From: Escherichia coli
Lineage (GTDB): Bacteria > Pseudomonadota > Gammaproteobacteria > Enterobacterales > Enterobacteriaceae
Assembly: GCF_030384885.1 (NCBI RefSeq)
Contig: NZ_CP128613.1
Direction: 5' to 3' (one strand)
Length of the DNA: 64,000 nucleotides
In this document: in pieces, positions 25,275 through 31,761 of the stretch
Layout: each line of letters opens with the position of its first letter
Numbering within the stretch: position 1 is the stretch's first letter
Notes under the pieces: generated by a model
What the model was told of the DNA's origin: nothing
Database searches by the model: none
The model's input: the letters and a program-made list of their open reading frames with translations, nothing else
Program-made: the position numbers and the translations under genes

Positions 25275-26999
25275 TCAGGTTCTCTCCGTTTTGCTTAACC
25301 ACATTTCATCCATTCCGCCCCCGCGAATCTGCATCGGGTAGACGTGCTCACTGCCATCGACGGTAACATCAACAAACACCAGACGATTATTGCGCACCTG
25401 TTCCAGCGCCTCGCTAAGTTTGCTTTCCAGCTCTTGCGGATGAGAAATCTGAATCCCGACATGCCCATAGGCTTCCGCCAGACGGACGAAATCGGGTAGC
25501 GATTGCATATAAGATTGTGAATGACGGCCGGAATAGATCATGTCCTGCCACTGCTTCACCATCCCCAGATAGCGATTATTGAGATTCACCACCAATACCG
25601 GCAACTCGTATTGCAAGGCGGTAGACAGTTCCTGAATGTTCATCTGAATACTGCCGTCACCAGTGACGCAAACCACGGTTTCTTCTGGCAGCGCCATTTT
25701 GACACCCAGTGCCGCAGGTAAACCAAACCCCATCGTGCCGAGGCCACCAGAGTTAATCCAGCGACGCGGTTTGTCGAAAGGATAATAAAGTGCGGCGAAC
25801 ATCTGGTGCTGCCCGACATCAGAGGTCACGTAAGCGTCCCCCTTCGTCAGCCGCCAAAGAGTCTCGATAACCGCCTGCGGTTTAATCTTTTCACTGTGAG
25901 TGTCATATTTCAGGCACTGACGAGCGCGCCACTGTTCAATCTGCTGCCACCAGTCGCGGATCTCATCCAGCGGTTGATGGGCGGATTCTTGCGACAGGAG
26001 TTCAAGCATTTGTTCGAGGACCTGGCGGGCATCCCCCACAATCGGGATATCAGCAGTCACGGTTTTAGAAATTGAAGTTGGATCAATATCGATATGCAGA
26101 ACCGTGGCATTTGGGCAGTACTTTGCCAGATTGTTCGTCGTTCGGTCATCAAAACGTACCCCGACGGCGAAAATCACATCCGCGTTATGCATCGTCATAT
26201 TGGCTTCGTAGGTGCCGTGCATTCCCAGCATGCCCAGAGCCTGACGATGCGTTGCCGGAAACGCCCCCAGCCCCATTAGTGAGGAAACAACGGGCAGATT
26301 CAACGCCTCCACCGTGTCTTTCAACTGCTGATGGCAGCCCGCCGTGATTGCCCCACCGCCTACATACACAACCGGTTTTTTTGCCGCCACCAGCGTTTGC
26401 AGAGCGCGCTTAATTTGCCCTTTATGTCCGGAGGTCGTGGGATTGTAAGACCGCATACTGACCGACTCCGGCCAGACGTAGGGTAATTTGTTCGCAGGAT
26501 TAAGAATATCTTTCGGTAAATCAACGACCACTGGTCCAGGGCGACCACTTGCCGCCAGCCAAAAAGCCTTTTTCAGCACCTGCGGAATGTCTTCCGTTTG
26601 CTTAACCAGAAAACTGTGCTTCACCACTGGGCGGGAAATTCCCACCATGTCGCACTCCTGAAAAGCATCGTAGCCTATCAACGAAGTTGCTACCTGCCCG
26701 GAAAGAACAACCAAGGGAATGGAGTCCATATAAGCGGTGGCGATGCCGGTAATCGCATTGGTCGCCCCTGGCCCCGATGTTACCAGCACGACGCCGACTT
26801 CCCCGGTCGCGCGTGCCAGACCATCGGCCATATGCACCGCCGCCTGCTCATGACGAACTAATACATGATCGATACCACCCACGGTATGCAATGCATCGTA
26901 AATATCAAGGACCGCGCCTCCGGGATAACCGAATACTTGTTTAACGCCCTGATCGATAAGCGATCGGACGACCATCTCGGCTCCAGACAACATCTCCAT
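25275..26999 (-). CDS. ilvI: acetolactate synthase III large subunit
   Basis: Start trimmed to [11 protein letters not shown] to give 574 aa; thiamine-diphosphate enzyme. Confidence 0.93.
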
Positions 27000-27011: not shown

Positions 27012-27315
27012 TGTTTAACGGAAAAATGTGTAAAACACATTAACCGCCCGATCTTGCTTAAGCAATTGGTAGCCAGAGACATAAATACGAGGTAATAAGA
27101 ATAAACAGGAGGAAAGGTGAAAAGAAACGATAAAATCCTCCATTACGGAGGATTAAATTGATAATAAATCGGCTAAATCCCACAACTTACAGCAATTTCT
27201 CTATTTTTTTAATTAATCCTAAAATAGTGAACTCACACATTCAGAATAAAATTCTATATTCAATAAAAAATACAGAATAAATCAGTAATCAATATCTGAC
27301 CTATTCTGCATTCAG
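27012..27315 (-). promoter_or_regulatory. ilvIH promoter/upstream region (AT-rich)
   Basis: AT-rich gap between leuO and ilvI; this is where the Lrp-activated ilvIH promoter is expected; individual sites not mapped. Confidence 0.4.
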
Positions 27316-28260
27316 TTAGCGTTTGCAAATTGAGACTAATTGCTCTTCCATCCACTGATGGCCTTTGTCGCGCCCGGCAGCTTCATGCCAGGAGAGATAA
27401 CAGGTTCTGCTATTTTGTTTTAATGGCAGCGGTAATACCTGTAACTCTAAAGATTCAGCGAACTCTTCAGCCAGCCAACGCGGCGCAATAGCGACCAGAT
27501 GCGTTTGCGACACCACGCTCAGTACACTCATCATTGCCATGCCCTGATACGCGATACTGGCTTGTTTATCTACCGTGTCATACCACGGTTGACTAAATGA
27601 CGCGAAACGATCGAGCGAAACTGCCGCATGTTGTTCGTTATAAACATCATGTTTCAGTAACGGGCCTTTAATTGTTGGATGATTTTTGCTGGCTACCAGC
27701 ACCATTTCATCTTTAAATAATGGCACACTGGTAAATTCAGGACGATGGAAGTCTTCATAACTAATCACAAACTCCGTTTCCTGATAACGCAGTTGATGTT
27801 CAGTGTTCTGATTTAATGAAGACTTGAACATAACATGTATATTTGGCGCAGTTTGCTCAATGTGATTATAAATCTGCGAGGTCAGAATGCTGTCTAACGG
27901 ACTGCAAACACAAAGATGAAATACACGTTCACTGCTCGCGGGTTCAAAACCTGAACCTGGCAATTCATTTTGTACTAATTGCAATGCCTGACGAACTGAA
28001 CCAAAAAGTTGAAATGCGCGAGCAGTCGGTTGAATGCCACGGCCATAACGAACAAAAAGCTCGTCATTAAACATCACCTTCAGGCGTGCAACCGCGTTAC
28101 TGACCGCAGGTTGCGACATCCCCAGAACATGAGCGGCACGGGTGATGTTTTGCTCCTGCATCACGGCATCGAAAACGGTTAATAAGTTGAGATCGACCAT
28201 GCGTAGTTGTGGCTTGCTTAACTCCGCCGTCTCTGGTTGCTCTGTTTGTACCTCTGGCAT
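27316..28260 (-). CDS. leuO: LysR-family transcriptional regulator LeuO
   Basis: Start trimmed to [27 protein letters not shown] to give 314 aa; LysR HTH. Confidence 0.9.
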
Positions 28261-28919
28261 ACTTAACTCCACTGTCACACTTAACTCCCTTTCCCTTATT
28301 GGAATGCAGAGAAATAATCCTCGAGAATATGATTTATCATGCATATAAAATAAGAAAAAGGAAAATGAGAAAAATTAGGAAAACATAAAGATACGGGTTC
28401 TTATAAAAACAGAACCCATTGCCGAGTAAAGAGTCATTTACCGCAGCATAATAATCCATAATGTTTTTGTTGCGAAAGCAATCTAATCATAACTACCGCG
28501 AATACTCAATCATCCACAAAATGGATTAAATGTGCTTTTTTAATAATTAATTTATATGTTTAATGCATTAATTCTTAACATTAATCGAACAATAATATTC
28601 ACCAAATGAATATCAAAAAAATTAGCAAAACATATAATTCAATACAAATCATCAAGATAGGTTTTGTAACGCGTGCATTTTATCCCCCTTTTCCTCGTTG
28701 ATTAGATACAAAAATTTATTCTGAAATATGTCAACCGATGAAAAGCGTCGGTGGTTAAGCAGAAATTAATATCGCTTGTTTTAACCACTGCAGCACAATT
28801 AGCTAATTTGACGAATGCAGAACTCACTCTGGCGGAACGTTTTTGTTGCGTCAGGGTTGACATCCGTTTTTGTATCCAGTAACTCTAAAAGCATATCGTA
28901 TTCATCTGGAGCTGATTTA

Positions 28920-29006
28920 ATGACTCACATCGTTCGCTTTATCGGTCTACTACTACTAAACGCATCTTCTTTGCGCGGTAGACGAGTGAGCGGCATTCAG
29001 CATTAA
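28920..29006 (+). CDS. leuL: leu operon leader peptide
   Basis: 28-aa peptide [28 protein letters not shown] with four consecutive Leu codons. Confidence 0.9.
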
Positions 29007-29019
29007 GCCAGCACGCAGT

Positions 29020-29056
29020 CAAACAAAAAACCCGCGCCATTGCGCGGGTTTTTTTA
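29020..29056 (+). terminator. leu operon attenuator terminator
   Basis: Stem aaacccgcgc...gcgcgggttt followed by a T-run, between leuL and leuA. Confidence 0.8.
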
Positions 29057-29098
29057 TGCCCGAAGCGAGGCGCTCAAAAAGAGACAAGGACCCAAACC

Positions 29099-31761
<2,663 letters not shown>

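Follow-up and report, generated by a model that had tools for sequence, protein, structure and literature searches.

The leuO-leuLABCD divergent control region and its leucine attenuator in an Escherichia coli chromosomal segment

The interval located between leuO and leuA in a stretch of 64,000 nucleotides of Escherichia coli DNA (NCBI RefSeq assembly GCF_030384885.1, contig NZ_CP128613.1; this whole stretch is referred to as the window) is the already known control region between leuO and leuL, and its leu attenuator is intact. It is almost certainly the native E. coli leuO-leuLABCD divergent control region. This identity had been proposed in a sequence-only reading of the window, and Rfam, NCBIfam, the alignment with strain K-12 and RefSeq annotation all agree with it; each of the elements described in that reading was found where it had been placed.

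Results

Boundaries and gene layout

The sequence and the list of open reading frames (ORFs) delimit the leuO-leuA intergenic interval exactly at 28261-29098 (838 bp), 28261 being the first base beyond the leuO start codon (ATG, complement of 28258-28260) and 29098 the final base ahead of the leuA ATG at 29099. The genes leuO (minus strand) and leuL (plus strand) are divergent and separated by 659 bp (28261-28919). The LeuO protein passed the NCBIfam model NF007063 'transcriptional regulator LeuO' (572.5 bits, cut-off 262), and both score and orientation identify leuO as the divergent neighbour upstream of leuL. The annotated leuO ATG is preceded by GGAG on the minus strand, and the 342-residue leuO frame in the ORF list is a mere effect of an upstream in-frame ATG. 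At the other side of the interval, LeuA passed the NCBIfam equivalog NF002084 (1047.4 bits, cut-off 748), its Shine-Dalgarno sequence is AAGGA at 29086-29090, and leuB, leuC and leuD follow downstream as ORFs of K-12 sizes. The ORF order (ilvH and ilvI, leuO, leuL, leuABCD) is that of the K-12 annotation, the window being in reversed orientation relative to K-12, where these genes are at about 83-85 kb. The coordinates of the features are given in Table 1.

Table 1. Features of the leuO-leuA interval and of its flanking genes, with positions in the window.
Feature	Position	Strand	Basis
leuO CDS, 314 aa, LysR-type regulator, annotated ATG at 28260	27316..28260	-	ORF list and NCBIfam
AT-rich divergent spacer with leuO promoters and regulatory sites; AT-richest core 28500-28660	28261..28856	.	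Composition, cross-species gap, literature
leuO-proximal segment with ribosome-binding site and two GGAGTTAAGT modules	28261..28321	-	Eight-allele invariance, direct repeat D4
leuLABCD promoter block: -35 TTGACA 28857-28862, TAACTC 28880-28885 at 17-nt spacing, presumed start near A 28893	28857..28896	+	Conservation
Leucine operon leader RNA, Rfam RF00512 Leu_leader	28906..29055	+	147.5 bits, E = 8.6e-34
leuL leader peptide gene, 28 aa, Shine-Dalgarno GGAG 28908-28911, ATG 28920	28920..29006	+	Translation, NCBIfam
Four consecutive CUA Leu codons, charged tRNA-Leu sensing site	28947..28958	+	Codon list
Protector hairpin sequestering GCGCGG	28945-28951 with 28977-28983; 28961-28964 with 28972-28975	+	MFE structure
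Antiterminator: GCGCGG 28973-28978 with CCGCGC 29032-29037 (terminator 5' arm)	28973..29037	+	Constrained nascent folding
Intrinsic terminator: 13-bp stem 29025-29037/29042-29054, GC core 29031-29037/29042-29048, loop CATT, T7 29049-29055	29025..29055	+	Fold, inverted repeat I3
leuA (2-isopropylmalate synthase), 523 aa, first structural gene under the attenuator	29099..30670	+	ORF and NCBIfam

Two further elements were observed at the other side of leuO. A 14-codon ORF (GTG start, KRNDKILHYGGLN) at 27117-27161 on the plus strand is the counterpart of K-12 yabR and is listed as 'hypothetical' in the genome with an identical interval described below. It overlaps a minus-strand terminator-like hairpin (27134-27154) located downstream of leuO, which is probably the leuO terminator.

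Comparison with K-12 and with other E. coli genomes

The alignment of the 838 bp with E. coli K-12 MG1655 (NC_000913.3, 83530-84367, b0074-b0076), which had been suggested as a check of the sequence-only reading, contained no indels and 38 substitutions (95.5% identity). Of these substitutions, 36 are in the spacer and two, at 28997 and 29076, in the stretch of 179 bp that begins with the leuL ATG and ends just before leuA (28920-29098). Genes, order, orientation, length of 838 bp, LeuL peptide, terminator, antiterminator and -35 box are all identical in K-12 and the window, and none of the substitutions (4.5% of positions) is at a paired base of the protector, the antiterminator or the terminator. 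Identity to K-12 is 96.7% for the leuA coding sequence and 96.9% for that of leuO, with one residue difference in LeuA and three in LeuO, and the LeuL peptide is the same, the only change in its gene being a synonymous Ile codon at 28997. With the K-12-sized leuB, leuC and leuD ORFs, these figures bear out the earlier statement that the locus is intact.

The interval was 100% identical to that of E. coli 2013C-4282 (NZ_CP027579.1), whose annotation has leuO, leuL (WP_001300467.1) and leuA in the equivalent places. Of 5426 complete E. coli genomes, 5399 contained a match, with a median of one place per genome and a maximum of two, and leuL is annotated in all the RefSeq matches listed. Only 168 of the 5399 genomes reached at least 99% identity, which indicates a minority-lineage allele; the phylogroup F strain SMS-3-5 was 99.5% identical, and by its sequence the window allele is phylogroup-F-like. 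Less than 80% of the interval was matched in 21 genomes, 27 had no match and three matches were plasmid-borne. In one clinical strain (E. coli elppa9, NZ_CP083481.1, locus L009) an IS1 element is present in the leuO-leuL spacer (467-1164, about 28500-28560 of the window); the LeuL of this strain has a different protein accession, WP_032141177.1.

Variation along the interval was followed in an alignment of eight diverse alleles, namely that of the window and those of K-12, EC958, O157:H7, 55989, O80:H26 and two further strains. No column varied (0 of 61) in the segment adjoining leuO (28261-28321), about 11-15% of the columns were variable in 28322-28852, and 1-2% from the -35 box to leuA, with one variable column only in 28853-28919. 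At the level of sequence conservation, the invariant 61 bp implies a strong constraint on the leuO 5' region. Seventeen positions were private to the window allele. The private substitutions in the leader are a T in place of C at 28899, within the 5' untranslated region, and ATT for ATC (Ile26) at 28997, both at unpaired positions of the predicted leader fold. The poly-A tract 28615-28621, in the AT-rich core, varied from 6 to 12 A among the eight alleles and was the sole recurrent indel site of the interval.

Composition of the leuO-leuL spacer

The G+C content of the spacer (28261-28919, 659 bp) is 0.325, more than 5 standard deviations under the mean of all 659-bp segments across the 64 kb (mean 0.527, standard deviation 0.039). 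The segment of this length with the lowest G+C begins at 28263, and only 0.06% of the segments are as low. In the core (28500-28660) the G+C content is 0.21, and the longest run of pure A/T comprises 22 nt (28536-28557); runs of at least 10 nt occur five times within the 0.66-kb gap, versus 0.66 per kb window-wide. The very AT-rich gap of roughly 660 bp and the A/T tracts around 28520-28640 that the sequence-only reading had pointed out were both recovered in these measurements, the gap being the most AT-rich stretch of its length in the 64 kb, and the spacer is as markedly AT-rich as an H-NS-silenced region would be expected to be. The ilvI-leuO intergenic region (27012-27315) is equally AT-rich, with a G+C content of 0.31 and a minimum of 0.20. 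Its length is 304 bp versus 317 bp in K-12, with a misplaced ilvI boundary; it would be about 316 bp if ilvI ends at 26999.

The leu promoter was analyzed by its conservation in the upstream sequences of many species, 95 of them distinct. The five first bases of the -35 hexamer TTGACA were invariant and the sixth was 82% conserved, and the TATCCAGTA..CTAAAAGCATA block was highly conserved. The transcription start is presumed to be near A 28893, following the K-12 leuLp annotation. A generic sigma-70 scan did not call this promoter, whose -10 at canonical spacing is weak (TAACTC), and returned three promoter-like sites in the interval versus 5.6 expected from shuffles. A generic terminator scan did not call the attenuator, which is probably an artefact of the scan rule: the stem runs into A:U pairs and fewer than five T are left after it. 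Because the leu promoter and the attenuator were both missed and promoter-like sites were fewer than in shuffles, the generic promoter scan is unusable for mapping the leuO promoters P1 and P2.

Leader peptide and attenuator RNA

The LeuL peptide matched the NCBIfam profile NF007397 of the leu operon leader peptide over its whole length (residues 1-28 on profile 1-28; 80.9 bits, cut-off 59). The leader ORF has its own Shine-Dalgarno sequence and the run of regulatory codons that is expected in an attenuator. The Rfam RF00512 match of the leader RNA was also full-length (model positions 1-148 of 148) and exceeded the gathering score of 50. The minimum free energy (MFE) of the leader was -55.7 kcal/mol (z = -5.1), and none of 200 shuffles folded as well. 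The terminator hairpin, AAAAAACCCGCGC-CATT-GCGCGGGTTTTTT (29025-29054), corresponds to the 100% complementary inverted repeat I3 and to the terminal hairpin of the Rfam model; the terminator has the form of an intrinsic terminator and its end is 43 nt ahead of the leuA ATG. The four-Leu leader peptide and the attenuator hairpin of the sequence-only reading are accounted for by leuL, with CTA four times in succession, and by the 13-bp stem with T7, respectively.

The hairpin is symmetric, with A6 upstream and T7 downstream, and a sub-threshold Rfam match (33.7 bits) was obtained on the minus strand at 29024-29078. In principle, antisense transcripts that enter from leuA could also be terminated at this hairpin.

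The antiterminator was derived by folding the nascent transcript, up to the 5' arm or the loop of the terminator, under constraints. When the RNA was masked up to the Leu codons plus 12-15 nt, as it would be by a stalled ribosome, and the terminator 3' arm was absent, the MFE structure was the antiterminator, mutually exclusive with the terminator; when the nascent transcript was unmasked, GCGCGG remained inside the protector. In the complete leader at equilibrium, the terminator persisted under a ribosome mask placed at any of the four CUA codons, and therefore the antiterminator works only in a kinetic, co-transcriptional model. Equilibrium folding with a ribosome mask was dropped as a test of the antiterminator, the terminator always being favored.

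All the consensus helices of RF00512 and its terminal hairpin are present in the window and nothing notable differs, except that the Rfam consensus depicts the terminating conformation only, whereas the antiterminator described here comes from constrained folding. The trpL, hisL, thrL, pheL and ilvL attenuators have a common logic with this leader: a short leader ORF is rich in codons for the cognate amino acid, the hairpins are alternatives to each other, and an intrinsic terminator precedes the first structural gene. The window differs from them in its four CUA Leu codons and has no homology with them outside the terminator; the Rfam models of the Thr and Phe leaders gave 25.7-27.8 bits on this shared terminator, well under their gathering scores of 55.

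Conservation across genera

Species-representative genomes were scanned for exact matches to a pattern of 19 nt that covers the Leu codons and leaves one position free. A total of 96 enterobacterial leaders (91 distinct) were recovered, each with a peptide of 26-30 residues containing LLLL and with a terminator. The LLLL run was present in 96 of 96 leaders, a figure to be read with the selection in mind, as the pattern spanned those codons, so that their columns are fixed and the set is biased in favor of close relatives. The loci L016, L023, L031, L037, L051, L062 and L063 (Bacteroidales, Treponema, Enterococcus and others) were chance matches that lacked the leader ORF and/or the terminator, and they were excluded.

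Pairing statistics were obtained from an alignment of 92 distinct leaders. The two protector helices were paired in 98.6% and 100% of the cells, and a protector U-A pair was replaced by C-G, a compensatory change, in 18 sequences, with 19 changed on both sides. The terminator was paired in 95.5% of the cells, with an invariant GC core. The six pairs of the antiterminator were all 100% paired and invariant, which gives no evidence of covariation either way. The outer helices of the window MFE structure, which were only 67-74% paired across genera in these 92 leaders, have been left unclaimed.

A near-full-length divergent leuO was found upstream of leuL in 70 enterobacterial species, with a leuO-leuL gap of 480-759 bp (median about 636) and a gap G+C content of 0.32-0.40 versus a locus median of 0.52. 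Because a divergent leuO with a similar AT-rich gap is present in these 70 species, the comparison indicates that an AT-rich spacer of about this length is an old, family-wide feature and no insertion.

A second candidate start of leuO

The two GGAGTTAAGT modules next to leuO are 18 nt apart (28258-28289, minus strand); GTG (28278-28276) comes after the first of them and the annotated ATG (28260-28258) after the second. The leuO sense strand reads GGGAGTTAAGT-GTG-ACAGTG-GAGTTAAGT-ATG, that is, two Shine-Dalgarno-plus-start modules, in frame and six codons apart, with AAGGGAG upstream of the GTG. When 49 enterobacterial species were aligned from LeuO residue 1, the upstream codon was GTG or ATG in 45 of them, and a Shine-Dalgarno-like tetramer was located 5-14 nt before it in 44. 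The codon aligned to the E. coli Met1 was ATG or GTG in 46 species and the non-start GTT in the other three, and in two species stops between both start positions force the downstream start. The true LeuO N-terminus may be ambiguous; translation from GTG 28278-28276, which would yield 320 residues and would replace or accompany the annotated 314-residue form, appears possible from this arrangement, although rather unlikely. The choice of the leuO start is an annotation-level question.

Discussion

The anatomy of the leader suggests how the leucine operon would be controlled. From the promoter with the invariant -35 TTGACA, transcription would yield a leader RNA about 160 nt long, in which the 28-residue LeuL is encoded. 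With plentiful charged tRNA-Leu the ribosome would pass the four CUA codons, GCGCGG would be locked in the protector, the terminator at 29025-29055 would form and transcription would halt ahead of leuA. Under leucine scarcity the ribosome would stall on the CUA run and block the protector, and the free GCGCGG would pair with CCGCGC (29032-29037) once this is transcribed, letting the polymerase continue into leuABCD. This would be the classical kinetic attenuation switch, of which the pairings have been computed and the leucine-dependent readthrough is either inferred or taken from the literature. A rise of readthrough at limiting charged tRNA is established for the leu operons of E. coli and Salmonella in the classical literature.

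The AT-rich DNA upstream (659 bp) would contain the leuO promoters and regulatory sites. In E. coli K-12, H-NS and StpA repress leuO at both of its promoters, P1 and P2, whereas BglJ-RcsB activates P2 and LeuO exerts a negative autoregulation (PMC5025477, PMC3950696), and the same published controls would apply to this spacer. In a Salmonella study, leuO is described as strongly H-NS-repressed and is listed, citing earlier work, among the known H-NS-binding chromosomal loci (PMC10981669). The AT-richness of the spacer fits H-NS silencing, and the claim would derive from this published work on E. coli K-12 and Salmonella, because silencing is unreadable from sequence and the H-NS high-affinity motif is unenriched: two matches to TCGATAAATT with two mismatches were found in the 838 bp, about the window-wide 1.1 per kb. 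The missing enrichment does not strongly weaken any claim, since the motif is not obligatory for binding. H-NS prefers AT-rich, curved DNA over a strict motif.

These observations bear on a more ordinary explanation, according to which the AT-richness would be just the composition of any promoter-bearing intergenic region and no specific H-NS-dependent silencing would take place in this strain. The unenriched motif and the equally low G+C of the neighboring ilvI-leuO gap (0.31) are in line with it, but the gap is the extreme of the 64-kb window and its length and composition have been maintained across genera despite sequence turnover; the published repression of P1 and P2 of E. coli leuO by H-NS/StpA (PMC5025477, PMC3950696) and the citation of leuO as a known H-NS-binding locus in the Salmonella study (PMC10981669) also count against it, and this explanation is considered improbable. 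The established preference of H-NS for AT-rich curved DNA likewise takes weight from the motif result. The low G+C (0.325 vs 0.527) is, on the other hand, typical of foreign DNA, and one strain carries IS1 in the same gap, from which the 659 bp might be taken for a mobile insert or one gained by horizontal transfer, for example the remnant of an island or the scar of an IS. The ubiquity and collinearity of the gap rule out such an origin, whose probability is practically nil: the gap is present at this locus in the great majority of E. coli genomes (5399/5426), equals its K-12 counterpart in length and aligns with it without indels, and has counterparts of similar length and composition in 70 enterobacterial species, and neither a transposase ORF nor long terminal repeats were found in the ORF list and the repeat search.

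A gene for a small protein or a small RNA, hidden in the gap and missing from the annotation, would be an alternative reason for its conservation, and several ORFs of 20-53 codons are indeed found there, including a minus-strand ORF of 40 aa (28337-28459) that is open in 8/8 E. coli alleles. All the substitutions in this 40-aa ORF change amino acids, however, with no sign of purifying selection, and the other frames are broken: 28606-28701 loses its frame through the length polymorphism of the poly-A tract, 28702-28863 has stop codons in 7/8 alleles and 28751-28882 has a stop in EC958. With no Rfam family in the gap at E <= 1 and nothing annotated between leuO and leuL in K-12 or in the identical genome, such a hidden gene has been rejected as very improbable.

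The sequence-only reading had also found the spacer consistent with an H-NS-silenced promoter-relay region. The relay model comes from work on leu-500 topA strains of Salmonella Typhimurium (PMC4264507), in which the relay is a sequential activation by transcription-driven local supercoiling (summarised in PMC4264507, PMC10981669). The arrangement of the ilvIH-leuO-leuABCD relay region of Salmonella Typhimurium (work of Wu and colleagues, PMC4264507) is common to the window, in which ilvIH, leuO and leuLABCD follow in this order, leuO is divergent from leu and the spacers are AT-rich. The relay region of Salmonella Typhimurium includes an AT-rich H-NS-nucleating silencer (PMC4264507), and the window spacer is also AT-rich; in Salmonella enterica arizonae (locus L080) the leuO-leuL gap, of 645 bp and G+C 0.33, is similar to that of the window. 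The Salmonella relay was, however, shown with the leu-500 promoter mutation in a topA background, and a promoter relay in this E. coli strain would be an analogy with Salmonella.

The interval raises no new question on attenuation or on H-NS silencing, and its value is that of quality control only, as it fixes the place of the window in the E. coli chromosome and shows the leucine operon and its attenuator to be undamaged. Leucine prototrophy and normal attenuation control are thus expected of the strain.
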